Shown here: in pieces, positions 5,271 to 49,305 of the stretch | Layout: each line of letters starts with the position of its first letter | Position numbering within the stretch: position 1 is the stretch's first letter | Assembly: GCA_018664825.1 (NCBI GenBank) | Contig: JABJNO010000017.1 | Location: forward strand, 163,011 to 227,010 | Length of the DNA stretch: 64,000 nt | DNA from: Candidatus Parcubacteria bacterium | Lineage (GTDB): Bacteria; Patescibacteriota; Patescibacteriia; UBA1558; GWA2-36-10 | Direction of reading: 5' to 3' | The notes under the pieces: generated by a model | The model's database searches: none | Told to the model about the DNA's origin: nothing | What the model saw: the letters and a program-made list of their open reading frames with translations, nothing else | Position numbers and translations under genes: made by a program

Positions 5271-8200
5271 TTAGTATTTATTTAACACATCATCAGTTAC
5301 GTTGTATATTTCTTCTCCTGCATATTTAGCCAATTCTTTCAAAGTCTTGATATGACGTTTATGACCATCTTCGATGATATAAATTCTCATATCACTACCT
5401 CTTAGTAAGCTACCATCTGCAAATTCTTTGATACCAAGAATCTGTTTGTTATCTTCCCAGTCTGGATAATTATCCAATACATCGGTCAATACATTGTAGA
5501 TTCTTTGTCCCAAATAGTTATCATGCAAATACTGCCAACTTGGAATATGCCACTTCTTTTGTTCACGAAGTAGATATACCATCATTTCTGCACTACAAGC
5601 ATCTCTCAATAAACTACCATCAGGATATTGGAAAATTTGATCAATATCAACGTCTGGACCAGTTGAATGACTAGGTCTCATAAAGTCACAAGATAAAATC
5701 TTTTCACCCAATACCTCTGGAGGAGTTGGTCCTGGAGGTGGAGGTGGAGGCGGTGTGTCTCCACATGATTCTGCGGTTGGGGTAGTAAATGTTCTGTCAT
5801 AATCAACCTTTGCAGCATTGTCTACACCTTTTGATTTTACAAGATAATGATAAGTAGTACCTGGTTCTAAGCCAGCCAATAGAACTGAGTGACTTGAAAC
5901 ATAATCTGTACTCAAGATTTCTTCACCGTAAGTTTGAGTAAGTCCATGAATCATCCAAGTAAGAGAATCTTTTGAGGTATTCCAAGTAATAGTTGCGTCA
6001 TTTTGACATGAGGTCACAGCTAAAATATCTGAAATATCTGGAGGTGTCTTTCCTCCACCACAATTGGTAATACATCCGCCGCCACGAGTTTGAACTGTTA
6101 CAGTTCTAGTGACTTGAGAGGCATCGTTGCCATCTGAATCAGATACGTCATAAGTGACAAGATAGGTACCTACTGCAGCAACTACTGGATTTACAGTGAC
6201 AATATCAGGGGTGATATCACCATCTTCATCGTCATAAGCTGTAGCTCCGTCATCAACATAAGTTTCGTCAGTATAAATATATACTGGATCAGCTCCAATC
6301 AAAGTGATTACTGGAGGCTCATCTGTATATGGACACATTTCAAATGGTGGTACGAAATGACTATAACAAGTAGTACTGTTTCCTATTGGATCAGCCATAT
6401 ATTGAGACATAATAACTATATCACTCAAGTTGATAACTCCTAGGCCATCACCTTGATATAAGTCAAAATGTTCAAAATATCTTTCTGGTCTATTTACTGA
6501 ATCTGTTACTCCTTGTAGTAGAGCATCACACCAACCTACAGCTGGATCTTCACATTGAAATTGAAAACCTTCTTCAGGATGATCAAACTCGTTATAACAT
6601 AGCTTATCATTTCCTTCGCTGTACATCTGAGATACTAAGCTTATATCAGTCAAATTTACCTTTCCATCATTGTTTAGATCAGCTACAGGATTGTAACTTG
6701 GAGTATTTATTGAATGTTTTACAACTCCCAATAAAGCACTACACCATGGAGCCCATGGGGTCTCACAATCTTCATCAATAGTCCAATCGGTATAAAAGCC
6801 ATCGTCAGCCACAGTAGTGGTCAACCAATAATGTGACATATTATCAGCCAGCCATACTTCGTCGTTTCCGGCATTGTAACTACCTACTCCTGTACCATCA
6901 AAACCTTTTTCTAGACCATTCCAAGCAGGAATTCCAGTAGCATCATCGCTTCTTTGAGTTGTTGCTGTAGCGTTATAAAACTCAATTTCACCAGATACAT
7001 GCTCTTTTTGACCTTCTAAGCCAGTACCATGCATAACTACTCTCAAGTTGTTTTCCAACCTTTGAACAGCTAAACCTGGAACATCCTCATATTGAGGACT
7101 AGCAGCTACATCTGGATCTATATAATGTGCACCGTTATAATATAGAGCAAACCATACATTTGATGGAATTTTATAACTAGCAGAACCTAGGAATAAATCT
7201 GAAGTCATATCTCCACCATTCCAGTTTTGTGTATCATCAACGTTTATTTTAGCTAAAGTCAAATCACTACATTCTGGAACAATAAATCGACATTGTTCTG
7301 AACATCCAACAAAATCTTTATGTGTAAGAGATATATTTGGATCACATTGTTCCCATTCTTGGTTTATTACACCATCACCACAATACGGGCTGTATTCTGG
7401 TAAGTCCTCTGTATTAAAGGCAACACAATAATATGTAGAATCTGAACTAACATCAATCCATTCAGCGTTATCATAATTTACAACATCGCTGTTACACCAA
7501 AATTCAGCACTTACATCATTACCTGGGGCGCTTCCTGGAGGAAAAGAAAATGGAACATAACCATCTTTCAATACTTCTCTAAACCAAAGTCTACCTGGTA
7601 AATTATCTAAGTCTAATTCTGTTTCTGTTCTACCGTTTATATCGGTAAGAGCATCAAAATCATACCAACCATCAACATTGTGTTCACCAATATAATTTCC
7701 ATCTAAATCTAACAAACTATTGTTGGTACCCCATTCAAATTTCCAATCTGATTCAAAACGACAGTTAGGGTGGCTATCTACAAAATCTTGAGCTGTATCA
7801 GCATTGATATTTGCAGAGCCAGACCAGTTTGGTAAATCAGTTTCATTGTCACACACAATTTTGTGTGCAATCACAGTAGCCTTGTTTTCTGGTTCTGGAT
7901 CAGCGGTTTTACAAAGACGTACATCGTCAACAAAGGTTCCAAAGCTGTTGCTTGGTCCAATATCTTCAAATGCTATCTCTGTAGTTGTATTATCAGCATT
8001 AAATACATAGCTAGAATTTGTCCAATCACCCTGAGCAAGAGGTGCGCTGCCTGTTACTGGGCCATCTGTATCTACTTGAATACCATCAACTTCAATTGAA
8101 AGTTCATTTTGTTCAGCAGTTATATTATGACGTGGGGCAAAAGACCAGAATAATTTGTATTCTGCACCTTCTTCTGTTCCAACGTCTTGAGAAATACGTG

Positions 8201-16530: not shown

Positions 16531-16637
16531 ATGATTGATTTAAATAATTTTATAAGTTTATTGTATCAAAAAGCCCTAGTATTTACTAGAACTTAAAATA
16601 AAAAAGAGGGTAAGTATAAACTTACCCTCTTCGCGAT

Positions 16638-16799
16638 CTAGCAGTCGTCATAGTCAGCGCAATCGCAATCATCTTGCCCACAATCACCATCGCAATCACT
16701 GGGCATAGGACTATTGCTCTGCAAACGCTCTGACTGAAGAGCTTCCTGTGACACGGGAACAAATTCCCGGTCAACCAGACCGCTAATAATAGTATCCAT
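16638..16799 (-). CDS. Candidate RiPP precursor peptide (53 aa) with a Cys/Asp-rich core: MDTIISGLVDREFVPVSQEALQSERLQSNSPMPSDCDGDCGQDDCDCADYDDC.
   Basis: Perfect SD AAGGAGGTG 5 nt upstream of ATG at 16799. Lies immediately downstream of the rSAM/SPASM gene on the same strand. Five Cys interleaved with Asp, ranthipeptide-like. Confidence 0.55.
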   Translation of the reverse strand: MDTIISGLVDREFVPVSQEALQSERLQSNSPMPSDCDGDCGQDDCDCADYDDC

Positions 16800-16813
16800 C
16801 TGACACCTCCTTA

Positions 16814-17833
16814 CTAGGCAACGCCTCGAATATGGTCCTGTGCGCTTCTCGAAAACCAAATCAGATTACACCCACCAAAGCAGGTGTTCCACAGTTTACA
16901 ATCAACGCACTTTTCACTCGGTGCATGAGTACGAAGAACAGTTCTGTCGCACTCTTTTTTGGCTAGAAAATTCTCAATAGCCTCGGGCTCATTGAGGTTG
17001 CCGTAGCTCAAACCAGCCATATGTGTACAAGGCAATAAATTGCCCTCCGGATCAACTGTTACTGCACGAGCAAACAAAGCGCAGGAAACAATGAGTCGCC
17101 TAAGCTCTATCAATTCGCGTAGTTTGTCCTGATCAAATAAACACAGTGGCACCAAAGCGTAGAAACTGACAAAGTCATAGGCAAGACCAATGTCTTCCAC
17201 CAAGCTAACATAATCCTGCAAATCAACAATGCCTGCGTCTTCGCCTTCTTCAAAACCACTTGGCTGAGATGAGCACATATTGAAAGCTGAGCGCTTCAAG
17301 CCGAATTCTTGAAAAAAATTCACCAAATCTGGTATGTTTTCCAGATTATAAGAACCAACCGTGGTTATTGAGTTGATTGGAATATCTTCCAACTGACAAT
17401 TTTCCAAACCACGAATAGCTTGAGAAAAAGATCCTTCTCTCATAGTGATGTTGTCATGAACTGCTTCTGTGCCTTCGATAGAAATCGAACAGTTTTGTAT
17501 GCCCGCTGCCTTGAGATCTTGCACAAAACTACGTTGAGCAAAACGACGACCGTTGGACATCATTTTTACTCGAATACCAAGGTTTGCGGCATACTCTACT
17601 ACTTGTAAAATGTGGGGATAAATACTAGGTTCCCCACCAACCAAAATACAAGTCCTGGCACCAGCATCAAACATTTGTTTGATGTATCTCTTGGCATCAA
17701 CCAATGTCATATCTATGCTATGACACAACTTACTGCCAGCATAGCACCACCGACAACGATTATTGCATTTGTAAGAGGGCGCAAGCCAGAATCCAAAAAT
17801 GCCCTTTTTATGGGCGTTTGTTAATTGTTTCAT
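16814..17833 (-). CDS. Radical SAM / SPASM-domain peptide maturase.
   Basis: N-terminal CNNRCRWC (Cx3Cx2C). C-terminal CVDCKLWNTCFGGC (Cx2Cx5Cx3C SPASM signature). GC ~48%, atypical for this window. Confidence 0.8.
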   Translation of the reverse strand: MKQLTNAHKKGIFGFWLAPSYKCNNRCRWCYAGSKLCHSIDMTLVDAKRYIKQMFDAGARTCILVGGEPSIYPHILQVVEYAANLGIRVKMMSNGRRFAQRSFVQDLKAAGIQNCSISIEGTEAVHDNITMREGSFSQAIRGLENCQLEDIPINSITTVGSYNLENIPDLVNFFQEFGLKRSAFNMCSSQPSGFEEGEDAGIVDLQDYVSLVEDIGLAYDFVSFYALVPLCLFDQDKLRELIELRRLIVSCALFARAVTVDPEGNLLPCTHMAGLSYGNLNEPEAIENFLAKKECDRTVLRTHAPSEKCVDCKLWNTCFGGCNLIWFSRSAQDHIRGVA

Positions 17834-18039
17834 GGTTTTGACTCCTTTTCAAGGTAGAAAGATAGACTGTTAATGAGCTATTATAATGTATTAATCTACA
17901 ACAATGTCCCAAAAGTGTCAATAATAATTGACATAAACAGTCAAAAATTATATAGTAATCTGTCAGGAGAATGTTCTTATAATTTAAAAGTGAGGTCCAA
18001 AAAAACGTAGTTAAATACTACAAACCTAGGAGTAAAATC

Positions 18040-19759: not shown

Positions 19760-20088
<329 letters not shown>

Positions 20089-20222
20089 TATTTTATCGTC
20101 TCATGCCCTTCGGCTACGCTCAGGACATTCTCCTCGTCTTGGTATATCAAGAATGGTTGGCGCTCCGAACGAAAGTGAGGAGCAAAAACCATGAGCGAGG
20201 AGCTATTTAGCGACGAGTCGAA

Positions 20223-20308
20223 TGGTGGGCCCGGAGGGATTCGAACCCCCGAAGGCGAAAGCCAGCAGGTTTACAGCCTGCCCCGTTTGACCGCTTCGGT
20301 ACAGACCC
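20223..20308 (-). tRNA. tRNA-Tyr (anticodon GUA) with long variable arm.
   Basis: Manual fold. Acceptor GGGUCUG/CGGGCCC (2 G-U pairs), 3-bp D stem, anticodon loop CUGUAAA, long variable arm, T-arm GGGGG-UUCGAAU-CCCUC, CCA. Confidence 0.7.
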
Positions 20309-39536: not shown

Positions 39537-40397
39537 GTGAAACTTTCAGACGTATTCGAAATCGCTTCTGGCACTATCACAGGCTTTGATCATGTGATCT
39601 CAAGCAAAAACAATCAGGACGGTCTAGCTATCTATGCTGATGATGATCAGCTAATAGCCGCTGTCTGTGATGGTTGTAGTGGTAGTAAAAAAGCGGAAGT
39701 CGGCTCAAACATTGCCGCGCGGTTGATTGTAAATCTACTGCGTGACAACCATTCTCTCTATTACGAGGATGCGCGTGCCTTGGAAAGGCTAAAGGATGAT
39801 TTCCTTATTGGTCTTTGCAATGTCGCGAAAGAGTTGGACACCAACTATCGTCAAGTTTTGATTGAGTACTTCCAATTCACTACCGTAGTGATGGTGCTCA
39901 ATCGTATCCAAAATAAGCTCTGGATTTTTTCTATTGGAGATGGTGCTATTGCTGTCAACGGAGAATTCGTTGACCTTGGTCCTTTCCCTGATAATGCGCC
40001 TCCCTATGTTGTCTACAATATGTTGGACACTAGCTTGGCTCAAGACAATCCCGAACTTTTGGATTTTCGGCTCAACTATGAGCTAGAACTAGACGAACTC
40101 CAGTCAGCAATGATTGGAAGTGACGGAGTTATTGACCTTGTCAATATTTCCGAACACAAGATGCCAGGAAAACAAACCTTAGTCGGTCCTCTGTCTCAAT
40201 TTTGGGAAAACGATTTGTTTTTCCGCAATCGAGATGCCTTGAGACGCAAACTGGTCTTGACCAGTCGTGAGTCTATCAAGCTGGATCGTAGCACTACCCC
40301 CTTTGGACTCCGTAAAGAACCTGGACTTTTGCCCGATGACACAACTATGTTTATCATCCGTCGCAAAAAGCCAAGCGAGGAAGGTGAAGTAACATGA
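39537..40397 (+). CDS. PP2C-family Ser/Thr protein phosphatase (GTG start).
   Basis: AAVCDGCSGS (PP2C motif DGxGG-like), conserved Asp positions, C-terminal LPDDTTMFIIR (DDxT motif). SD AAGGAG 5 nt upstream of GTG. Confidence 0.7.
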   Translation: MKLSDVFEIASGTITGFDHVISSKNNQDGLAIYADDDQLIAAVCDGCSGSKKAEVGSNIAARLIVNLLRDNHSLYYEDARALERLKDDFLIGLCNVAKELDTNYRQVLIEYFQFTTVVMVLNRIQNKLWIFSIGDGAIAVNGEFVDLGPFPDNAPPYVVYNMLDTSLAQDNPELLDFRLNYELELDELQSAMIGSDGVIDLVNISEHKMPGKQTLVGPLSQFWENDLFFRNRDALRRKLVLTSRESIKLDRSTTPFGLRKEPGLLPDDTTMFIIRRKKPSEEGEVT

Positions 40398-42262
40398 ACG
40401 TCTATCTAGGCGGAAAGCTTCTTCGCCTAAATCCAACCAAGTCAATTGGTAAAGGTGGTGAAGCTGATGTCTTCAACGTTGGTCAAGGATTGGCGGCTAA
40501 AATTTTTAAAGCCCCTAATCATCCTGACTATACTGGTCAAGCACACGAACAAAAAGCAGCCCAAGCTCGTCTGCTAGAACATCAGACAAAGCTCCGAGAA
40601 TTTCCTCAAAACTTACCTCCCAGAGTAATCACACCTAGAGGCTTGATTACCAACAAACCGGGAACTAAAATTTTGGGTTATGCTATGGAGCTAAAGCTAG
40701 GTGCTGAAGTATTGCTTCGCTACGGCGAACGCAGTTTCCGACAAGGTGGAGTTGGCAATGACTTGATAGTTGATATTTTCAGTGACTTGCATGAGACTGT
40801 CCTTGGTACACACAAAGCAAACGTTGTCTTCGGTGACTTTAATGATTTGAATATTTTGGTCATCAACAACCAAGCTTTTGTAATCGATGCTGACAGCGCT
40901 CAATTTGGCAAGTATCTCTGCAAAATGTTTACCGCCAAGTTTGCTGACCCCCTACTCTGTGATCCCAAGGCAACTTCGCTTGCGCTCAAAAAACCTCACA
41001 ACTCCAACTCTGACTGGTATTCCTTTGCTATCATGTTGATGCAATCCCTGCTCTTTGTCGGTCCTTATGGCGGTGTCTATCGCCCCAAAGACAAAAGCAA
41101 ACGCATGACGCATGATGCTAGGCCGTTGCACCGAGTGACTGTGTTTGACCCAGAGGTCAAATACCCTCGGCCAGCTACACCATTTGGTGTATTACCTGAC
41201 GATCTCTTGCAAGAATTTCATCGTATTTTTGTAGAAGATAAACGCGGAATCTTTCCGTTGCAACTTCTCCAAGAATTACACTGGACTACTTGTAGTGCCT
41301 GTGGTGCCGAACATGCTCGTGGTACATGCCCCGAATGTTCTCAAGTTGCCCCAAGCGCAATCAAAGAGACTGTCATGATCCGTGGCACAGTGACATCTAC
41401 CAGGGTTTTCAAAACTGCTGGTGTGATTATCTATGCTGCTGTTCAAAATGCTAAGCTCCATTGGCTCTGCCATGAAAACGGTGCTTACTTCAGAGAAGGA
41501 AATCGTAAGGTTATTCCTGGAAATCTCGATCCCCAGATGCGTTTCCGCATTCAGGGAAAAAATACGTTGATAAGCAAGACCGGACAATTGATAAAGATGC
41601 TCCCCGATGGGTCAACGTCCAAAGAACGAGTTGATAGCTTTGGCATCCTGCCAATCTTTGACTCAAATTCTAGTCACTCATACTGGCTCCAAGGCGGACA
41701 ATTGATGCGAGACGGACAATTTGGTCCCAAACGCATTGGTGATGTTTTGGAAGGACAGACGCTCTTCTGGACTGGAGATGAATTTGGCTTTGGTTTTTAC
41801 CGAGCTGGAAATCTCTGTGTAGCCTTTAGCTTTGATGCAAAAAAACCAGGTATCAATGACTCGATCAAATTACCTCCTATCAGAGGTCAGATGATTGATT
41901 CTACCTGTACATTTTCCAAAGAACGAGCTTGGTTTTTGATTGCTACCCGCCAAGGCGGAAAAACAATCAACCAATGTATCATCATCAACCGCAACGGAAC
42001 TATCGAAGCCGAAGCTGAAGCCGAAGAAGGCGACGGTAGCTGGCTCTCTAGCATCCGAGGCAAATGTGCAGCCGGCAAATTTTTGCTGGTCGCTACCGAT
42101 GATGGCATTGTCCGAGTGGAAGAAAATGGCGGCCAACTGTCGGTCACCAAAAAATTCCCTGACACTGAGCCCTTTGTACATTCTGGCTGCAAGCTATTTT
42201 CTAGCCAGGATGGTCTATGTGTTATCGATCAAAAAGAAATCCGCATCCTGAAAATAAAGTAA
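40394..42262 (+). CDS. Eukaryotic-like Ser/Thr protein kinase with a central zinc ribbon and a ~330-aa C-terminal beta-rich domain.
   Basis: GKGGEADVF (Gly loop), AAKIFK (VAIK-like Lys), FGDFNDLNILV (catalytic loop D..N), IDADSAQFG (DFG-like), CSACGAEHARGTCPEC. Start overlaps the PP2C stop (ATGA). Confidence 0.7.
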   Translation: MNVYLGGKLLRLNPTKSIGKGGEADVFNVGQGLAAKIFKAPNHPDYTGQAHEQKAAQARLLEHQTKLREFPQNLPPRVITPRGLITNKPGTKILGYAMELKLGAEVLLRYGERSFRQGGVGNDLIVDIFSDLHETVLGTHKANVVFGDFNDLNILVINNQAFVIDADSAQFGKYLCKMFTAKFADPLLCDPKATSLALKKPHNSNSDWYSFAIMLMQSLLFVGPYGGVYRPKDKSKRMTHDARPLHRVTVFDPEVKYPRPATPFGVLPDDLLQEFHRIFVEDKRGIFPLQLLQELHWTTCSACGAEHARGTCPECSQVAPSAIKETVMIRGTVTSTRVFKTAGVIIYAAVQNAKLHWLCHENGAYFREGNRKVIPGNLDPQMRFRIQGKNTLISKTGQLIKMLPDGSTSKERVDSFGILPIFDSNSSHSYWLQGGQLMRDGQFGPKRIGDVLEGQTLFWTGDEFGFGFYRAGNLCVAFSFDAKKPGINDSIKLPPIRGQMIDSTCTFSKERAWFLIATRQGGKTINQCIIINRNGTIEAEAEAEEGDGSWLSSIRGKCAAGKFLLVATDDGIVRVEENGGQLSVTKKFPDTEPFVHSGCKLFSSQDGLCVIDQKEIRILKIK

Positions 42263-42290
42263 TCAAAAGGAGGCCTTTTCCGTTAAGACT

Positions 42291-43373
42291 TTGTCTTTCA
42301 CCGTCAAACCTTTTCACTTTTCCGGAGGAAAAATCATGAATAAGATTCTACCCATTCCCCCTCATTTCAATCCGTCCCAGGCTAGCGAAGCCTATCGCAA
42401 TCCCTACCAAGAGCTGTTTGTAGCCGCTCAAAAGTGGGCTCGTGATCACGGATTGACCTCAGCTGGCGCTGACAAAAAGAGGGTCTGTTTGATGCCGATC
42501 GATACCCAAAACACCTTTTGCCTGCCCGACTTCGAGCTCTTTGTAGCTGGTGCGAGTGGCAATGGTGCTGTCGATGACAATATCCGTCTGTGTGAGTTTA
42601 TCTATCGCAACCTCGGTACTATTACCGAGATCTGTCCGACTATGGACACGCACAAGCTCATGCAAATCTTTCACCAGATGTTTTGGGTGAATGAAAACGG
42701 AGAACATCCCGAACCGATGACTATCATCAGTTTGGATGATGTCAAGACTGGTGTCTGGAAGGTCAATCCCAAGATCGCCGTAAGTGTTGCCAATGGCAAC
42801 TACGCTGGTCTCCAACGTCATGCTTTGCACTACGTCACTGAGCTTACCAATGCTGGCAAGTATCCACTCATCATCTGGCCCTTCCACGCCATGCTGGGTG
42901 GAATCGGTCATGCTTTGGCGAGTGTGATAGAAGCAGCTTGCTTCTTCCACGCTACCGCTCGCGGTATGGATACTGGCTTCGAGATCAAGGGAGGCAATCC
43001 GCTTTCTGAGAACTACTCTGTTCTTCGTCCGGAAGTACTCACCACTGATGGTGGCAATCCTATCGGACAAAAGAATACGACTTTCATCGAAAAGCTGTTG
43101 TCGTCCGACGTGCTGATCATTGCAGGACAAGCCAAAAGCCATTGTCTGGCCTGGACTATTCAGGATCTCTTGGATGAGATTTTGGCCCAGGATCCCAGTC
43201 TGGCGAAAAAGGTTTACATCCTGTTGGACTGCACTTCTCCTGTCGTCATTCCTGGTGTGATTGATTTCACTCCTCAGGCCGACGAAGCCTTCCAGCGCTT
43301 TGCTGATGCTGGTATGCATATCGTCAACTCGACCGACCCGATCACTGATTGGCCCGACATCGACTTGGGCTAA
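42291..43373 (+). CDS. Isochorismatase-family hydrolase (nicotinamidase PncA-like), unusually long at 360 aa.
   Basis: LMPIDTQNTFC (catalytic Asp motif) and AGQAKSHCLAWTIQD (catalytic Cys motif). Confidence 0.65.
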   Translation: MSFTVKPFHFSGGKIMNKILPIPPHFNPSQASEAYRNPYQELFVAAQKWARDHGLTSAGADKKRVCLMPIDTQNTFCLPDFELFVAGASGNGAVDDNIRLCEFIYRNLGTITEICPTMDTHKLMQIFHQMFWVNENGEHPEPMTIISLDDVKTGVWKVNPKIAVSVANGNYAGLQRHALHYVTELTNAGKYPLIIWPFHAMLGGIGHALASVIEAACFFHATARGMDTGFEIKGGNPLSENYSVLRPEVLTTDGGNPIGQKNTTFIEKLLSSDVLIIAGQAKSHCLAWTIQDLLDEILAQDPSLAKKVYILLDCTSPVVIPGVIDFTPQADEAFQRFADAGMHIVNSTDPITDWPDIDLG

Positions 43374-43438
43374 GTGTTTCATTTTCTTTATTGATCAATC
43401 GATCAATATAAACTTTTCTTAAAACAAGGAGGAGCAAA

Positions 43439-44227
43439 ATGAGCTCACCCAACGTTAGTGATCTTTTCCAGACTGCTGCTGAAGAAGGCGAATTGTCTGC
43501 TGGTACCATGCAAGTTTTGCAGGTAGCCGACATTGGCGCCAAAATTCAGGGAGCCCTGGGAATTGGTGTCGATCAGTTTGAATCCAGCGAAACTACGCTA
43601 GTCACTCTGATGCCGGACGATTCTGGTAGCATCCGTTTTGCAAACAACACTCAGTTGATGCGAGATGGTCACAACTTGGTACTCGACTCTTTGTCGGACA
43701 CCAAGCAAGCCGACAACATCCTGGCTATGACCCGTTATCTCAATGGAGAAGTTCTCTTTCCTTACGGTCCACTGGCATCTGCCGTCCGTATGGATCAGGG
43801 CAACTACAATCCCAATCAGGGTACTCCGCTCTATGATGAGTCGGTAGTCTTGCTCGGCGCTGTCCTGGCCAAAGCTCAGGAATTTGCCGATGCTGGAATC
43901 ATGGCTCGGACAATCACCCTACTCATCTCCGACGGAGCTGATCAGCATTCTCGACACCACGGTGCGGCTGACGTCGCAAAATTGGTTGCCGACATGCTGA
44001 GTCAAGAACGCCATATCATCGCTGCCATGGGTATCGATGATGGTCACGGTACTGATTTCCACCAGATTTTTGCTGCTATGGGTATTCCCGCCGAGTGGAT
44101 TCTCACTCCGGGTACCGATGCTAGTGAAATCCGAGCGGCTTTCAATACTTTCTCCAAGTCGGCTGTTCGTGCTAGCCAAGGTGCTGGTAGTTTTTCCCAG
44201 ACTGCAATGGGAGGCTTCGGCGCTTAA
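43439..44227 (+). CDS. vWA-domain protein (TerY-like).
   Basis: MIDAS motif LMPDDSGSI (DxSxS) with downstream Thr and Asp positions. Size ~260 aa, typical of TerY. Terminator 44246..44285. Confidence 0.65.
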   Translation: MSSPNVSDLFQTAAEEGELSAGTMQVLQVADIGAKIQGALGIGVDQFESSETTLVTLMPDDSGSIRFANNTQLMRDGHNLVLDSLSDTKQADNILAMTRYLNGEVLFPYGPLASAVRMDQGNYNPNQGTPLYDESVVLLGAVLAKAQEFADAGIMARTITLLISDGADQHSRHHGAADVAKLVADMLSQERHIIAAMGIDDGHGTDFHQIFAAMGIPAEWILTPGTDASEIRAAFNTFSKSAVRASQGAGSFSQTAMGGFGA

Positions 44228-44398
44228 CCAAAACCAACAACGGTGGAGTGTGTACCAAAAGGTGCACACTCCACTACTCTATTTTTAGAAAAGTGTTACC
44301 AAATACTTTGGTGATAATTTTCTTACCTTAAATATTTTGAGGTAATGTGTTCGTTTACAAATGTTCAACAATCAACCACCACTCAAAAGGAGAAAAAG

Positions 44399-44995
44399 AT
44401 GTTTGATCATGGAATGCCCAGTAAAATAGTTTGGAATGGTTTCTACAAAGTAGAGCTAATCGAAATCCCTGGAGCTCCTCATCCCCTCGAAATCATCCAT
44501 GCTACTGACTCTGTCAGCGTCCTATTTTACAACCTTGCCGAGCGTTATGCCCTGCTGGTCCGCCAGCCCCGTATCGCTATGGCAACTGATAAAAATCCCG
44601 AAGGCATGATCACCGAAACAGTTGCTGGTCGCTTTGACCTCAAAATCGGTGCTCGTGGCCTGATCGTCAAGGAAGCTCTCGAAGAAGCTGGTGTCGAAAT
44701 CACCGAAGGCCAAATCGAAATGCTCAACAACGGTCAGCCTATGGCTCTCACCGCTGGATGTAGCACTGAAAAAGCCTATCTGGCTATCTGTGAAATCAAT
44801 GCAACTATGATCGAGGCTCAGGAAAGAGTCTTTGGCGTCAAAGACGAAGGCGAAGAGATCGAAAGAATCTTTATCCCCTTTGCTGATCTGGAAGAATACG
44901 TCTGTGAAGACCTGCGTGTCTTTACTCTCATCCAGTACCTACTCAGCAAGCTGACGACCAAGGCTATCACCAGGCTCATCGACGATGTCGTATAA
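44399..44995 (+). CDS. Nudix-fold hydrolase (ADP-ribose pyrophosphatase-like).
   Basis: ETVAGRFD...KEALEEAGVEI matches the REuxEExGu half of the Nudix box. SD AAAGGAG upstream of ATG at 44399. Confidence 0.5.
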   Translation: MFDHGMPSKIVWNGFYKVELIEIPGAPHPLEIIHATDSVSVLFYNLAERYALLVRQPRIAMATDKNPEGMITETVAGRFDLKIGARGLIVKEALEEAGVEITEGQIEMLNNGQPMALTAGCSTEKAYLAICEINATMIEAQERVFGVKDEGEEIERIFIPFADLEEYVCEDLRVFTLIQYLLSKLTTKAITRLIDDVV

Positions 44996-45029
44996 ACTTT
45001 CCAAACCCCTTAACACAAGGAGAATTCAC

Positions 45030-46280
45030 ATGGACAGACCAATCATCAAATCCCTGATGGACTTGGATTTTTACAAGCTCACCATGGGACAGTTGATATT
45101 TCTCATGTACGCTCACATTCCAGTGACTTTCAGTTTTATCAATCGTAGCATTGACGTGCAACTTCCAAAGCATATCAATGTCGATGAACTGCGCGAACAA
45201 CTGGAGCATGCTCGTACTCTGCGTATCAACCCCGATGAACTTGGCTGGCTGGTCAGTAGCACAAGTATTTCTGGAAAACGAATCTTACAAGATCCGTATC
45301 TGAAATTCCTGTCTACTCTGCGCTTGCCAGAGTTCAACCTCGAAGTTGATGATGATAGAAGATTGCACCTGCAATTTTATGGCCCCTGGTCAACAGTCGT
45401 TTACTGGGAGACCATTGCCCTCTCAATCATCAATGAGATGTGGTGTCAGAGCCAGATGAAGGATATGAGTCGCTTCGAACGCGACTTGATTTTGACCGAA
45501 GGCAAGATGCGTCTAGGAAAAAAGATAGCACTTCTCAATCAACCTCAATGTGAAGGCCTGACTTTTTCTGACTTCGGTACCCGTCGTCGTTTTTCTGGCG
45601 ATTGGCAGTCGTATGTAGTTGACGCTATGGCCAATGAGCTGACCCAAGCAAAATTCAGGGGAACTTCAAATGTTCGCCTGGCTATGGATCACCATCTCCG
45701 ACCAATCGGTACTTCGGCTCACGAATTACCGATGATCATGAGCGGTATTATGCACAAAAACGATGACTCTATCCGAGCTTCCAACCAGCAGGTTTTGACC
45801 GACTGGTGGAATCTTTACGGACATGAGCTGTCTATTTTCTTGCCTGATACCTATGGTACCAAGTTTTTCTTTGACAACCTGACTCATGAACAGGTAGTCA
45901 ATTGGAGAGGCTTCCGCCATGACAGTGGTGATGCTATCGAGTTTGGCGAAAAGGTCATTTCCTTTTATCAGTCTCATGACGTCGATCCTCGTGAAAAGAT
46001 AGTTGTTTTCAGTGATGGACTTGATATTGAAAAAATTATCAAGTTCTATGGTCATTTCAAGGGTCGCATCGACACCGATAATGGTTGGGGTACTACTCTG
46101 ACCAATGACATGGGATTACGTACCTTGTCTCTGGTAGTCAAAGCTACCGAGGCCTGTGGTCATGGCTTGGTCAAATTGTCTGACAATCTGGCCAAAGCTA
46201 CTGGTAACCCCACTGATGTTGAACGCTTCAAAAAGATCTTTGGTCACACCGTGACCACTCGTACTGAGTGTAAGGTCTAA
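45030..46280 (+). CDS. pncB: Nicotinate phosphoribosyltransferase (NAPRTase family).
   Basis: N-terminal LMDLDFYKLTMGQ and SDFGTRRRFS motifs. SD AAGGAG upstream of ATG at 45030. Confidence 0.75.
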   Translation: MDRPIIKSLMDLDFYKLTMGQLIFLMYAHIPVTFSFINRSIDVQLPKHINVDELREQLEHARTLRINPDELGWLVSSTSISGKRILQDPYLKFLSTLRLPEFNLEVDDDRRLHLQFYGPWSTVVYWETIALSIINEMWCQSQMKDMSRFERDLILTEGKMRLGKKIALLNQPQCEGLTFSDFGTRRRFSGDWQSYVVDAMANELTQAKFRGTSNVRLAMDHHLRPIGTSAHELPMIMSGIMHKNDDSIRASNQQVLTDWWNLYGHELSIFLPDTYGTKFFFDNLTHEQVVNWRGFRHDSGDAIEFGEKVISFYQSHDVDPREKIVVFSDGLDIEKIIKFYGHFKGRIDTDNGWGTTLTNDMGLRTLSLVVKATEACGHGLVKLSDNLAKATGNPTDVERFKKIFGHTVTTRTECKV

Positions 46281-46401
46281 CACCTGTGGTGGGTAGAACA
46301 AAACTCTACCCACCACTCTTTTCTCAAGTCACCAAAACTTTGGTGATTTAAAAAAGGAAAATGTTCATTTACAATCAAGGTTTAAAACAAAGGAGAAGGC
46401 G

Positions 46402-47373
46402 ATGATTAAGTACCTACTTGCCTATCGTGAGATGGGTGAACTAGCCAAAGCTCTTGGCGAGTCAATGGCAACTCAAGACTCTACAACCCTAGTACCCAAA
46501 CACATCGAATGGAATAGGTTTGAAAACAACTACCCCAACCTCTTTATACCCAAGGTAGAAGAGATCGATGGCAGTGATGTAGTTTTTCTGGCCAATTTGG
46601 AAAAACCGGAAACTATTTTTGAACAACTAGCCATCATCCATGCTCTGCCTCGTTATGGTGTCCGCTCCCTGACTATCGTCCTACCATATTTCCCTACAGG
46701 AACTATGGAAAGAGTCGACAACGAAGGTCAGGTTGCTACTGCCATGACTCTGGCTCGGCTACTTTCAGCTACACCCTTGACTATGAATGGTCCTGCTCGG
46801 ATTGTCATCTTTGACATCCATGCCTTACCTGAACGCTTTTATTTTGGTGACGCAGTGATACCTCAATTGGTATCGGCTATCCCTTTGCTAAAAAGCCGAC
46901 TGGTAAAATTTGCCGAGGAAACCGATGATCCTCTTGCTATCTGTTTTCCGGACGAAGGCGCCAGAAAAAGATTTGGCAACATGTTCCCTGGTTACCCGCA
47001 GATTATTTGTGACAAAATTCGCGATGGCAATTCTAGAAATGTAGTCATAAAAGAAGGCGATCCTCGTGGTTACCACGTAGTGATTGTCGATGATCTGGTA
47101 ATTAGTGGTGGCACTACCAATGAGTGCAAAAAAGTACTCTTTGCCAATGGAGCCGCTGCTGTAAGTGCTTATGTCACTCATCCTGCATTTCCTCAAAAAA
47201 GTTGGAAACGCTTCATCGAGCGTGATCCTGAAGGATTGAATTTCTCAAACTTCTGGATTACAGACTCTTGTCCAAATACGGTCAGTGAGATCTTTTCTTA
47301 CAACAAGCATCAGGGCCATGGTCCTTTTGAAGTTTTGTCTCTGGTAGACCCTCTACTGGAAATGCTTAGTTGA
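46402..47373 (+). CDS. prs: Ribose-phosphate pyrophosphokinase-like PRTase-fold enzyme. Atypical.
   Basis: PRPP/ribose-5-P binding loop VVIVDDLVISGGT and overall Prs architecture. The canonical catalytic flexible loop (PYxGYARQDR) is replaced by PYFPTGTMERVDNEGQ. Confidence 0.65.
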   Translation: MIKYLLAYREMGELAKALGESMATQDSTTLVPKHIEWNRFENNYPNLFIPKVEEIDGSDVVFLANLEKPETIFEQLAIIHALPRYGVRSLTIVLPYFPTGTMERVDNEGQVATAMTLARLLSATPLTMNGPARIVIFDIHALPERFYFGDAVIPQLVSAIPLLKSRLVKFAEETDDPLAICFPDEGARKRFGNMFPGYPQIICDKIRDGNSRNVVIKEGDPRGYHVVIVDDLVISGGTTNECKKVLFANGAAAVSAYVTHPAFPQKSWKRFIERDPEGLNFSNFWITDSCPNTVSEIFSYNKHQGHGPFEVLSLVDPLLEMLS

Positions 47374-47433
47374 TTTGATCTCATCAAACCATCTCTTGTC
47401 TAAAACAAGAATACTCAAACGAGGAGATAAACA

Positions 47434-48396
47434 ATGAAAAAACCTGGAATCTTGGAAAAAGATCAGTGCGAGGCTATTATTGGCCTAGCAGCAAGCTCAC
47501 TCTATGAATACTGTGAACATCATGGTATTCACTATGTAGTCACTGGATCTTCCGGTGGTTTGGATAGTGCTGTCACTCTAGCCTTGGCTCAACGAGCCTG
47601 CAAGATGGCCGCTGAGAATGACTTTGATCTCACCTCTGTGGGTTTGATCATGCCTTGTCATTCTGACGAGTCTGCCGAACGCCTCGGCAAGATGGTCATC
47701 GAAAAATTTGGTGCCGAACAGATCACTATTGATCTAACATCAAACTTTGACTATGCCACCAATCTAATTGATGGCACCAATAGCCAAATCACGCATATTC
47801 TCAGAACTACCGGCGGTGTTGATGCTATTGATCAGCTAGATTGGTCCAAGAATATTGCCCAAGGCAATATCAAAGCTCGTATGCGAATGATGTTTGGTAC
47901 TTACCACGTCGCTCGCATGATGAATGGGATGGTCCTATCTACTGACAACCTGTCTGAGTTTTGGATGGCCTTTTGGACTATCTGTGGTGATGTCGGCGAC
48001 TACGGCATGATCCAGAGCCTCCTCAAAGGTCTCGAACTTTACGACTTGGCTGATTGCCTGGGTGTACCCAAGGAAATCATCAACTCCAAACCCGATGATG
48101 GATTAAACGTCGGTAACGGTGATGAAGATCAACTGGGTGCTTCTTATCCAGTACTCGATCTAGTAATGATCGAGCTTATCCATCAGGGATTTGATCCCGA
48201 TGGCAGCCTCGACCAACTCATGACCCTACCTTCTGTCGAAGGTGTTGACCAAGACGTGGTCGTGAAATTGGCCAAACGTTGTTTGCGAGGTAGCTTCAAA
48301 CGACATGGTCCAATCGTACTTTCACGTGCTGAGCTTGGCTTAGCTGCAATTAAAAACCTTGACCTTGATATGATTCAAAATCATTTCAGGGACTAA
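47434..48396 (+). CDS. nadE: NH3-dependent NAD+ synthetase.
   Basis: PP-loop VTGSSGGLDSAV (SGGxDS). ~320 aa is typical for NadE. Confidence 0.8.
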   Translation: MKKPGILEKDQCEAIIGLAASSLYEYCEHHGIHYVVTGSSGGLDSAVTLALAQRACKMAAENDFDLTSVGLIMPCHSDESAERLGKMVIEKFGAEQITIDLTSNFDYATNLIDGTNSQITHILRTTGGVDAIDQLDWSKNIAQGNIKARMRMMFGTYHVARMMNGMVLSTDNLSEFWMAFWTICGDVGDYGMIQSLLKGLELYDLADCLGVPKEIINSKPDDGLNVGNGDEDQLGASYPVLDLVMIELIHQGFDPDGSLDQLMTLPSVEGVDQDVVVKLAKRCLRGSFKRHGPIVLSRAELGLAAIKNLDLDMIQNHFRD

Positions 48397-48403
48397 CACA
48401 AAA

Positions 48404-48440
48404 CCCCCGTCGATTTTTTCGACGGGGGTCTTTATTTTAT
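48404..48440 (+). terminator. Terminator CCCCCGTCGATTTTTTCGACGGGGG followed by TCTTTATTTTAT (copy 1).
   Basis: Identical 39-nt copy at 49335..49373. Confidence 0.7.
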
Positions 48441-48464
48441 ATAAAAGATAAATTTTACTAATTC

Positions 48465-48493
48465 TTGACATTTTCTGTATTTTATGCTATAAT
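48465..48493 (+). promoter_or_regulatory. Consensus promoter TTGACA-17-TGcTATAAT driving 48556..49305.
   Basis: Exact hexamers with extended -10. Confidence 0.6.
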
Positions 48494-48555
48494 AATAAAT
48501 TAGTAAAAATCACTAGTTTTACCGACGGTTCATTAACACAAAAAAGGAGAAAACA

Positions 48556-49305
48556 ATGAAATTTTCAAAAACCAGTCTGCGCACCCTTCTGGTTGTATTT
48601 GTTGCAATCATTGCAGCGCTCACCCTTAACAATCTCACAAACAATCTGATCACCGATTATTCATCAGATGAATTCGCATCTGATGACAACTACAACAACA
48701 CCTCCGAGCTGTACTCTGATGAAGTGCCTGCTGAATCAAGTAAAAACACCAACAACTCATTCCCCATTCCCCCGACCCCCATCATCATTTTATTGAGTAT
48801 GTCACTTGTTACAATCGTTGGCATGATATTTGTTTGGACTAGAAATTTCATTAGGGTTCCGCCTGATTGCGTGATGGTAATCTTTGGATCCAAATCCAAG
48901 GGTGGTAAACCATATCGCGTTGTCAAGGGTGGTGGCGGTGCATTTGTTGCGCCGGTAATCCATTCCTACAAGTTGATCTACATGGGATCACAGAAGCTTG
49001 AGATCGACTTCAATGCCCTGTCTGCAGATTCTGAAAATCTCACAATCTTCTTGACTGCTCATTGCTCGCCCCTTACTTCTACCGAGGGCTTTGAGTCCTA
49101 CCTTGAACGTGGCATATACGAAAACTCCTCAATAGTGGAACAAACTATTGAGTCGTGCCTTAGGAGGCATATCGGTGAGTTCGAAGCCACAGATCTCAAG
49201 TCCAGTCCCCAAAAAACGTTATCAGAAGTCATTGATCTTATACGACCCGACCTAGAAGAGTTGGGCATGATGATCAATACCCTGATAATCACTGAAGTGA
49301 TGTAA
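48556..49305 (+). CDS. SPFH/flotillin-like N-terminal domain protein with TM anchor (short, 249 aa).
   Basis: FIRVPPDCVMVIFGSKSKGGKPYRVVKGGGGAFVAPVIHSYKLIYMGSQKLEIDF resembles the flotillin SPFH N-terminus. SD AAAGGAG. Flanked by identical terminators. Confidence 0.5.
   Translation: MKFSKTSLRTLLVVFVAIIAALTLNNLTNNLITDYSSDEFASDDNYNNTSELYSDEVPAESSKNTNNSFPIPPTPIIILLSMSLVTIVGMIFVWTRNFIRVPPDCVMVIFGSKSKGGKPYRVVKGGGGAFVAPVIHSYKLIYMGSQKLEIDFNALSADSENLTIFLTAHCSPLTSTEGFESYLERGIYENSSIVEQTIESCLRRHIGEFEATDLKSSPQKTLSEVIDLIRPDLEELGMMINTLIITEVM

Follow-up and report, generated by a model that had tools for sequence, protein, structure and literature searches.

A two-gene radical-SAM/SPASM cassette encoding a putative peptide maturase and a Cys/Asp-rich precursor in a Parcubacteria genome

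Introduction

QhpD is a radical S-adenosylmethionine (SAM)/SPASM enzyme that makes thioethers between Cys and the side chains of Asp or Glu in a small polypeptide rich in Cys and acidic residues. Its substrate, QhpC (the gamma subunit of quinohemoprotein amine dehydrogenase), is a periplasmic enzyme subunit and is encoded together with the dehydrogenase genes. Anaerobic sulfatase-maturating enzymes (anSMEs) convert Cys or Ser to formylglycine, and their recognition motif is C/S-x-P/A-x-R. Thioether formation is the most frequent reaction of the radical-SAM (rSAM) enzymes that mature peptides that the ribosome makes and that are altered after translation (RiPPs), including SPASM enzymes with Cys-rich substrates (PMC10177961). 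PapB, for example, joins the Cys sulfur to the beta-carbon of Asp in CX3D; a thiol and a carboxylate nearly suffice for this reaction, and altered spacing is tolerated (PMC9413430, PMC12715619). This study concerns a pair of adjacent genes in Candidatus Parcubacteria bacterium, namely an rSAM/SPASM enzyme gene and a small open reading frame (ORF) directly downstream of it, which lie within a stretch of 64,000 nucleotides (assembly GCA_018664825.1, contig JABJNO010000017.1, positions 163,011 to 227,010; the whole stretch is hereafter the window). A preliminary description, made from the letters of the window, took the pair for a horizontally acquired, ranthipeptide-like RiPP locus.

The canonical SPASM motif, CX9-15GX4C-gap-CX2CX5CX3C-gap-C, binds two auxiliary clusters, and in SuiB a linker Cys is the first ligand of the first cluster (Aux I), which makes both clusters fully ligated (PMC6231123). 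In CteB, PapB and Tte1186, three Cys residues bind the first auxiliary cluster (AC1), leaving it a free site that a Cys of the substrate fills, and four bind the second (AC2) (PMC10177961). CteB, SuiB, SkfB and PapB each bear a RiPP recognition element (RRE) (PMC6231123; PMC12715619). Ranthisynthases reportedly resemble each other closely, and published large-scale mining used co-occurrence with an RRE or a transporter (PMC10288494).

Results and discussion

A peptide gene conserved directly downstream of the enzyme gene

The small ORF is a real gene. It encodes 53 residues (MDTIISGLVDREFVPVSQEALQSERLQSNSPMPSDCDGDCGQDDCDCADYDDC) on the same strand as the rSAM gene, begins 14 nt past the rSAM stop codon, and is preceded by the Shine-Dalgarno sequence AAGGAGGTG (Table 1), as the preliminary description had it. 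The Cys/Asp-rich character claimed for it was borne out as well: the C-terminus, ...SDCDGDCGQDDCDCADYDDC, holds 5 Cys and 9 Asp within its last 20 residues. A search for close rSAM relatives among 5.8 billion proteins yielded about 27 enzymes (52-68% identity), all from metagenomes or metagenome-assembled genomes (MAGs). After dereplication, 11 close relatives (identity of 50% or more) have enough flanking DNA, and in each of them the peptide gene stands immediately downstream; the downstream family ORF is 47-79 aa long in every distinct close locus with sufficient downstream DNA; two precursor copies are present in L002 and in L003/L004. When every ORF of 12 loci was compared all against all, the enzyme and the peptide were the only genes common to all. 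A profile of 14 peptides retrieved 35 proteins from the same 5.8 billion and nothing else, none of them with a name beyond 'hypothetical', and the peptide family is thus alike in size to the close rSAM family.

In the peptide alignment (A2), the family has a leader-like N-terminus, M-x-T-I-I-x-G-x-A-x-R-x-[YF]-x-P-V-S followed by a variable linker, in which R11 is invariant and V16 and S17 are at least 90% conserved; the pattern recurs in the 35 family members. The C-terminal core block, DCDGDCG[Q/G]xDCDC, is invariant across the family, and xSDCDD usually comes next. Its invariant residues are Cys, Asp and Gly only (with one position that is Gln or Gly), and no aromatic residue, Lys, Thr or hydrophobic residue is found among them. 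C40-G-[Q/G]-x-D44 forms one invariant CX3D, and an Asp adjoins every Cys; the peptide thus has what ranthipeptide substrates offer, namely Cys with an acceptor (Asp, Glu, Thr or Asn) a short way off, as in CX3D. Across 14 distinct DNA versions of the gene, each invariant residue column is written with two to four synonymous codons, which argues for purifying selection on the peptide at the protein level.

Conserved leader and core, a paired enzyme, co-occurrence and selection support the assignment of the locus as a maturase and precursor pair of RiPP type, and to this extent the ranthipeptide-like RiPP of the preliminary description stands. RiPP loci commonly, though not by definition, include a linked gene for a leader peptidase, an exporter or immunity. 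Such a gene is missing here: none for a protease, a transporter, an RRE protein or immunity is conserved in the 12 loci, nor was any such Pfam match found among the neighbours.

Distribution and the wider clade

The family is rare, confined to metagenomes of Patescibacteria, and uncurated; those close relatives whose taxon label was read are Patescibacteria or unresolved MAGs. A wider clade was defined by a profile search of 1.84 billion representative proteins and comprises 846 clusters (50% identity) at E <= 1e-30, of which the members with a source that was read are mostly Patescibacteria. In about 100 fetched loci, enzymes of 21-36% identity often precede other short Cys-rich peptides, e.g., ...GIGCDCRGCDKD, ...NCDCKK, (CDCADCS)x3-4, GDCKCKCG..., CNCNCNC, and CQCQCDCNFCNCCTCKC. 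The triplet 'CDC' was found in 29 of the 184 small ORFs directly downstream of these enzymes; among the other small ORFs of these loci, 24 of 2643 contain it (odds ratio 20, p = 9e-22). Because the peptide recurs after every close rSAM relative and 'CDC' is enriched downstream of the clade, the pairing goes far beyond chance. Roughly half of the distant loci have no such peptide, and the association of enzyme and peptide is therefore not universal.

The wider-clade enzymes are mostly 330-370 aa long and therefore also lack an RRE. Five of them gave nothing above the NCBIfam and Pfam cut-offs, with scores of 49-71 bits for the PapB model. On the peptide side, the precursor and 13 relatives searched against NCBIfam at E = 10 gave no family beyond one chance-level match (E = 0.11), and the precursor, its relatives and five other clade peptides matched no peptide family at all in NCBIfam or Pfam. 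Literature searches on the motif, on ranthipeptides and Patescibacteria, on rSAM enzymes and the candidate phyla radiation (CPR), and on Cys-rich SPASM substrates and metallothioneins found nothing on the family. The cassette looks like an rSAM-modified Cys-rich peptide type of an uncharacterised family that is RRE-less, has an atypical SPASM Cys set and is confined to the CPR.

Several relatives of the enzyme (P0073, P0076, P0077, P0080, P0082 and others) are 600-1400 aa long, contain two to five radical-SAM-like stretches, and resemble tandem fusions. In one MAG, the rSAM gene is cut to an 87-aa C-terminal fragment while the downstream precursor gene is intact (L023, 2977-3400); this locus has at its edge a second rSAM gene, which is distant (about 27% identity).

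Family, fold and cluster ligands of the enzyme

The enzyme has 339 residues and an ATG start preceded by a Shine-Dalgarno sequence. Both motifs named in the preliminary description were read in it: CX3CX2C as CNNRCRWC (C23-x3-C27-x2-C30), and the SPASM CX2CX5CX3C in CVDCKLWNTCFGGC (C309-x2-C312-x5-C318-x3-C322). In the enzyme alignment (A1), C23, C27 and C30 are at least 90% conserved, the exceptions being N-terminally truncated sequences only. Pfam gives Radical_SAM at 83.5 bits and SPASM at 20.8 bits against a cut-off of 21.5. In the radical SAM superfamily, a CX3CX2C motif binds the SAM-cleaving [4Fe-4S] cluster within a partial TIM-barrel core, and the enzyme is a member of this superfamily; it has no cobalamin domain.

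The enzyme matches 69 radical-SAM families in NCBIfam, none near its cut-off; the scores (cut-offs in brackets) are 105.8 bits (500) for NirJ2, 98.4 (500) for AhbD, 77.6 (650) for AhbC, 75 (625) for StsB, 75 (450) for DynA, 65 (265) for mycofactocin, 59.8 (349) for anSME (TIGR03942), and 59 (340) for PapB (NF047865). The AhbD and AhbC matches cover the radical-SAM core only. The maturase model of SCIFF (six Cys in forty-five residues), TIGR03974, was not among the 25 best NCBIfam matches of the enzyme and reached 27.9 bits against 425 for a clade member. Since all curated scores fall far under the cut-offs, the enzyme groups with no known family.

An AlphaFold2 model built from the family alignment has a pLDDT of 89.3, with residues 1-9 of low confidence. 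Neither the alignment A1 nor this model contains a winged helix-turn-helix or RRE at the N-terminus. The nearest solved folds include SuiB, anSME, SkfB, ChlB and CteB, i.e., peptide-modifying SPASM and Twitch enzymes, with anSME among the two closest. The fold search was set aside as a guide to chemistry: the model is equidistant from these five and does not discriminate between chemistries.

Seven C-terminal Cys residues are invariant in A1, namely C231 in the linker, C251-x12-G-x4-C269, and C309-x2-C312-x5-C318-x3-C322. Six of the seven Cys of the SPASM motif are thus present and invariant; the final one, after the last gap, is absent, the protein ending 17 residues after C322, and it is likewise absent in the wider clade. 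C269, C309, C312, C318 and C322 align with C276, C317, C320, C326 and C330 of anSME, and C231 aligns with the linker Cys of SuiB. On these correspondences, Aux I may be ligated by C231, C251, C269 and C322, and the second cluster (Aux II) by only three Cys residues. By alignment, the scheme of CteB, PapB and Tte1186 does not apply: C231 is a candidate fourth ligand of Aux I, and the fourth Cys of Aux II is gone.

Proposed chemistry

Since the invariant core is devoid of aromatic residues, Lys, Thr and hydrophobic residues, a SPASM enzyme would most obviously act here through Cys. With only Cys, Asp and Gly (and one position that is Gln or Gly) in that invariant core, the conserved reaction cannot be of the cyclophane, Lys-Trp, Tyr-based (PQQ, mycofactocin) or Thr-based kind. 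The Parcubacteria two-gene unit is read, with moderate confidence, as an rSAM/SPASM peptide maturase and its ribosomal substrate, which would be thioether-cross-linked. That the modification is a thioether cross-link is held to be about equally probable, and the Asp side chain is proposed as the thioether acceptor more tentatively. These gradings follow from the composition of the core, the missing anSME motif, the SPASM precedent, and the CX3D that is like that of PapB; a Cys-to-Asp thioether is our best guess for the chemistry.

In the proposed mechanism, the enzyme would read the conserved leader (IIxGxAxRx[Y/F]xPVS) directly, with no RRE domain, and SAM would be reductively cleaved at the C23/C27/C30 cluster. 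Cys thiolates would then join carbon radicals to give intramolecular thioether rings, with the auxiliary clusters accepting the second electron. The likeliest acceptors would be the Asp residues flanking each Cys, by their side-chain beta-carbon as with PapB and QhpD, e.g., in C40-x3-D44. As no protease or exporter is linked, the product might remain in the cell or use general machinery.

Several observations weigh against a thioether of the ranthipeptide kind. The enzyme is dissimilar to the ranthisynthases, and no curated maturase family in NCBIfam was matched, be it PapB, StsB, anSME or NirJ2. An RRE is found in neither the enzyme nor the neighbouring genes, and by alignment the Cys ligand pattern appears to be the reverse of the CteB/PapB/Tte1186 scheme. 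Peptides of the distant clade swap Asp for Lys, Asn or Gln (CKCKC, CNCNC, CQCQC), so the acceptor may not be a carboxylate side chain, and some distant cores shrink to CDCKK, with no CX3D. Room is possibly left for links to the alpha-carbon (sacti-type) or for chemistry centred on CxC. The label 'freyrasin-type ranthipeptide' given in the preliminary description is consequently not established, as the PapB model failed, an RRE is lacking and the ligand scheme is another one; the Cys-to-Asp non-alpha thioether proposed there is reasonable from the core composition and C40...D44, but it is not told apart from an alpha-thioether or other chemistry.

Comparison with described systems

The cassette works like the minimal SCIFF/ranthipeptide cassettes, but none of the tests run places it in the PapB, SCIFF, sactisynthase, anSME or cofactor families. 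Like PapB/PapA (freyrasin; Cys-S to Asp C-beta), it combines an rSAM/SPASM enzyme with a short precursor in which Cys and Asp alternate and which here holds one CX3D. It differs in the score for the PapB model given above and in the absence of the N-terminal RRE of PapB (residues 1-85). It also differs in the auxiliary ligands, since PapB is predicted to have three Cys on AC1 and four on AC2 (PMC10177961), whereas here a linker Cys is extra and AC2 is short of its last Cys. In PapA, CX3D recurs regularly six times, in contrast to the single compact CX3CX4CXC block found here.

SCIFF peptides with CteB or Tte1186 (thermocellin-type ranthipeptides) share with the present locus the minimal two-gene layout with no dedicated exporter or protease, and CteB has the same C-x17-C spacing of the first two SPASM Cys residues (C344/C362 versus C251/C269). 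CteB, however, is about 450 aa long, with an RRE domain and an open Aux I site (PMC6231123), compared with 339 aa here. The cassette matches neither the SCIFF precursor family (six Cys in forty-five residues) nor the maturase family TIGR03974, and the SCIFF acceptor is the gamma-carbon of Thr, a residue that the core lacks. SuiB (streptide Lys-Trp cross-link) and anSME are only 17-18% identical to the enzyme; both have fully Cys-ligated auxiliary clusters, unlike the present clade without the final Cys, and their substrates are unrelated, as the core has no Lys/Trp pair and no C-x-P/A-x-R. The dehydrogenase genes that accompany QhpD/QhpC were not seen around the cassette. Three-residue cyclophane synthases (ChlB and other triceptide maturases) require an aromatic residue, of which the invariant core has none.

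Alternative explanations

One alternative is a genuine maturase-precursor pair with a chemistry other than the known sacti- or ranthi-type thioethers, which we consider possible but rather unlikely. Candidates are oxidation of the Cys beta-carbon as in anSME, a Cys-Cys link in C-D-C/CxC, sulfur insertion, and epimerisation; Aux II, being incompletely ligated, might be the cluster to which the substrate binds. This alternative draws on the fact that the enzyme falls in no characterised family and that its cluster-ligand pattern is unlike that of known thioether synthases; anSME, one of the two closest folds, is likewise without an RRE. The motif shared in the wider clade is C-D-C/CxC rather than CXnD, with some cores consisting only of CDCKK or GCDCRGY. 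On the other hand, the anSME recognition motif is not in the core, the literature search found no such chemistry described for CxC peptides, and a thioether is the commonest outcome for Cys-rich SPASM substrates (PMC10177961). A bolder version, which we regard as less likely still, is that a whole clade of RRE-less SPASM enzymes acts on a minimal C-D-C/CxC unit by undescribed chemistry (e.g., with the substrate at Aux II and a cross-link spanning CxC), the product being a compact, acidic peptide with thiols or thioethers whose task would be to bind metal or to mediate between episymbiont and host; the present cassette would then be the best-conserved branch.

It is improbable that the peptide is chiefly a metal binder (metallothionein-like, or with a Ca2+-binding DxDxD loop) whose product is a chelator and not an antibiotic-like RiPP, and which the enzyme only tailors, unless the enzyme has another role. 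The peptides of the clade recall metallothioneins in their very high Cys/Asp content and their CxC repeats, e.g., GDCKCKCGDCKCNEHCG and CRCNRC...CACVCKCDC, which speaks for such a function, as does the lack of a linked exporter, protease or immunity gene in any locus. Yet no metal-binding, TSP-3 or EF-hand model of Pfam or NCBIfam was matched even at E = 10, and a metal-binding role leaves the leader-like N-terminus and the strict pairing with an rSAM enzyme unexplained. It is also compatible with the thioether reading, in the form of a cross-linked chelator, and not exclusive of it. The likeness of DxDGDxG to Ca2+-binding/TSP-3 repeats was reduced to a minor part of this alternative for lack of hidden Markov model support.

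That the enzyme is instead a cofactor-biosynthesis or sulfatase-maturating rSAM protein (NirJ/AhbD/anSME-like) with an incidental ORF downstream is very improbable: NirJ2 (106 bits) and AhbD (98 bits) are its top NCBIfam scores and anSME is a top structural neighbour, but the matches lie 3- to 6-fold under the cut-offs and most (not NirJ2 and anSME) span the generic radical-SAM core only, the ORF downstream shows conservation and purifying selection and no other neighbour is conserved, and no heme or sulfatase genes were found beside the cassette. Grouping with such enzymes had been named in the preliminary description as grounds for refutation, and the outcome of this check is neutral, with NirJ2 and AhbD as the best partial matches at about 100 bits against cut-offs of 500.

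CPR genomes are tiny and have few recognisable biosynthetic loci, so that a conserved modified-peptide cassette is a rare handle on their chemistry and on their dealings with hosts or metals. The two main strategies for mining rSAM RiPPs overlook the family (PMC10288494): guidance by an RRE fails for want of one in the enzyme, and guidance by a transporter for want of a linked one. The family is a good lead for genome mining. Tractable as a system, an RRE-less enzyme with unusual auxiliary ligands and an invariant substrate stretch of 13 residues could shed light on peptide recognition by SPASM enzymes and on the role of their auxiliary clusters. If Cys-Asp thioethers are indeed made, this compact enzyme would be an alternative to PapB for peptide macrocyclisation.

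Anatomy of the cassette and its neighbours

By its sequence features, the cassette appears to be a self-contained two-gene transcription unit, from a promoter-like site to an intrinsic-terminator-like hairpin (Table 1). The accessions MBT4849906 (a 152-aa lipoprotein) and MBT4849907 (the rSAM enzyme) are consecutive at NCBI, from which it follows that the 53-aa gene is apparently unannotated in the GenBank record of the MAG; JGI calls it a hypothetical protein.

Table 1. Positions of the cassette parts and of other features in the window
Feature	Position	Strand	Remarks
Promoter-like site, TTGACA-17 nt-TAGATT	17893..17921	-	Some 60 nt upstream of where the rSAM gene starts; consensus scan, pattern match only
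Radical-SAM/SPASM enzyme, 339 aa	16814..17833	-	No N-terminal RRE domain; CX3CX2C begins at residue 23
C23-N-N-R-C27-R-W-C30 codons (radical-SAM [4Fe-4S] cluster-binding motif)	17744..17767	-	Direct sequence reading
Auxiliary-cluster (SPASM-type) region	16868..17143	-	Putative; alignment A1 and alignments to anSME and SuiB; definitions from PMC6231123 and PMC10177961
rSAM stop codon	16814..16816	-	
Shine-Dalgarno sequence of the precursor gene	16804..16812	-	4 nt ahead of the precursor ATG; direct sequence reading
Precursor ORF, 53 aa	16638..16799	-	ATG at 16799; stop at 16638-16640
Leader-like part of the precursor, residues 1-33	16701..16799	-	Alignment A2 motif, then variable linker
Precursor core, residues 34-53	16641..16700	-	Holds the family-invariant block
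Intrinsic-terminator-like hairpin	16603..16632	-	13-bp stem, 4-nt loop, T-run; begins 5 nt past the precursor stop codon
Predicted lipoprotein, 152 aa	16072..16530	-	Signal peptide, lipobox ...GAGC
Cys-rich ORF, 65 aa	18040..18237	+	Divergent from the cassette
Cys-rich ORF, 216 aa	18356..19006	+	Divergent from the cassette
tRNA-Thr(GGT) and tRNA-Tyr(GTA)	19760..20308	-	Flank the GIY-YIG ORF; about 2 kb upstream of the cassette
GIY-YIG ORF, 87 aa	19825..20088	-	
Secreted protein, 448 aa	12152..13498	-	
High-GC block	39537..49305	+	

The predicted lipoprotein lies directly downstream of the terminator; among the other loci, L001 alone has a homologue (6705-7172, E about 1e-27), which lies 1.4 kb downstream of its cassette. 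On the other side of the cassette, the divergent 65-aa protein carries three CxxCxGxG-like knuckles, and the 216-aa protein starts with a hydrophobic segment, possibly a membrane one, and has a tail rich in Cys and Asp with DDDDDD at its end. No homologue of either stands beside the cassette in the 11 other loci, and a functional link is unproven. RlmN and a class II aldolase are also among the neighbours of the enzyme; looked up by exact sequence, these two and the enzyme itself are listed as proteins of Candidatus Parcubacteria bacterium MAGs. Further upstream, two tRNA genes flank an ORF of the GIY-YIG type, which has one homologue, in L002, in the all-against-all comparison of the 12 loci.

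Composition and horizontal transfer

The guanine-plus-cytosine (GC) content of the gene pair is 43.7% (42.8% for the rSAM gene and 48.8% for the peptide gene) versus 38.6% for the window. The figures of the preliminary description, about 50% against a background of about 33%, were thus wrong, and the label 'horizontally acquired', which was drawn from them, finds no support in composition. In the window, 16% of equal-sized segments are as GC-rich as the pair, and the rSAM gene ranks 15th of 52 genes both for GC and for GC at third codon positions (GC3) (z = +0.76 and +0.66).

A recent horizontal acquisition of the cassette is considered unlikely, if less so than some of the explanations discussed above. 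The distribution is patchy and rare, the flanking genes differ between loci, an IS605-type TnpB gene lies about 0.8 kb upstream of the cassette in L003/L004, and the tRNA genes and the GIY-YIG ORF lie close by in the window. Against acquisition stand the GC and GC3 of the rSAM gene, which fall within the distribution of the window's genes (z about +0.7), and the taxon labels, which, as far as they were read for close relatives, are all Patescibacteria or unresolved MAGs. An origin from a mobile element was rejected, as protein searches of phage and plasmid collections and of viral contigs (IMG/VR) returned only relatives of at most 35% identity. The patchy spread, the unrelated flanks and the nearby TnpB are compatible with mobility within Patescibacteria and do not demonstrate it.

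The TnpB proteins have OrfB_IS605 and Cas12f-like TNB domains (L003, 1957-3195; L004, 837-2075), and the two precursors of the cassette in these loci include the divergent DCGGTGPQGDGCDCATDCAECSNDC. The true high-GC block of the window lies elsewhere (Table 1): its genes have 44-52% GC and GC3 values of 0.40-0.56, where the means over genes are 38.9% and 0.337. They encode a PP2C phosphatase, four ORFs with no Pfam match, NAPRTase, a PRPP-synthase-like protein, NAD synthase, and an SPFH/Band7 protein, and the block may be an acquired NAD-salvage island. The 448-aa secreted protein (Table 1) contains three repeats of about 90 aa (ICDHNGDN.RNL.DV...FDVNGD..H.L.DV..YAS.NQ.NAWCASEFVC) that have no significant Pfam match and resemble calcium-binding repeats of the dockerin or EF-hand type.

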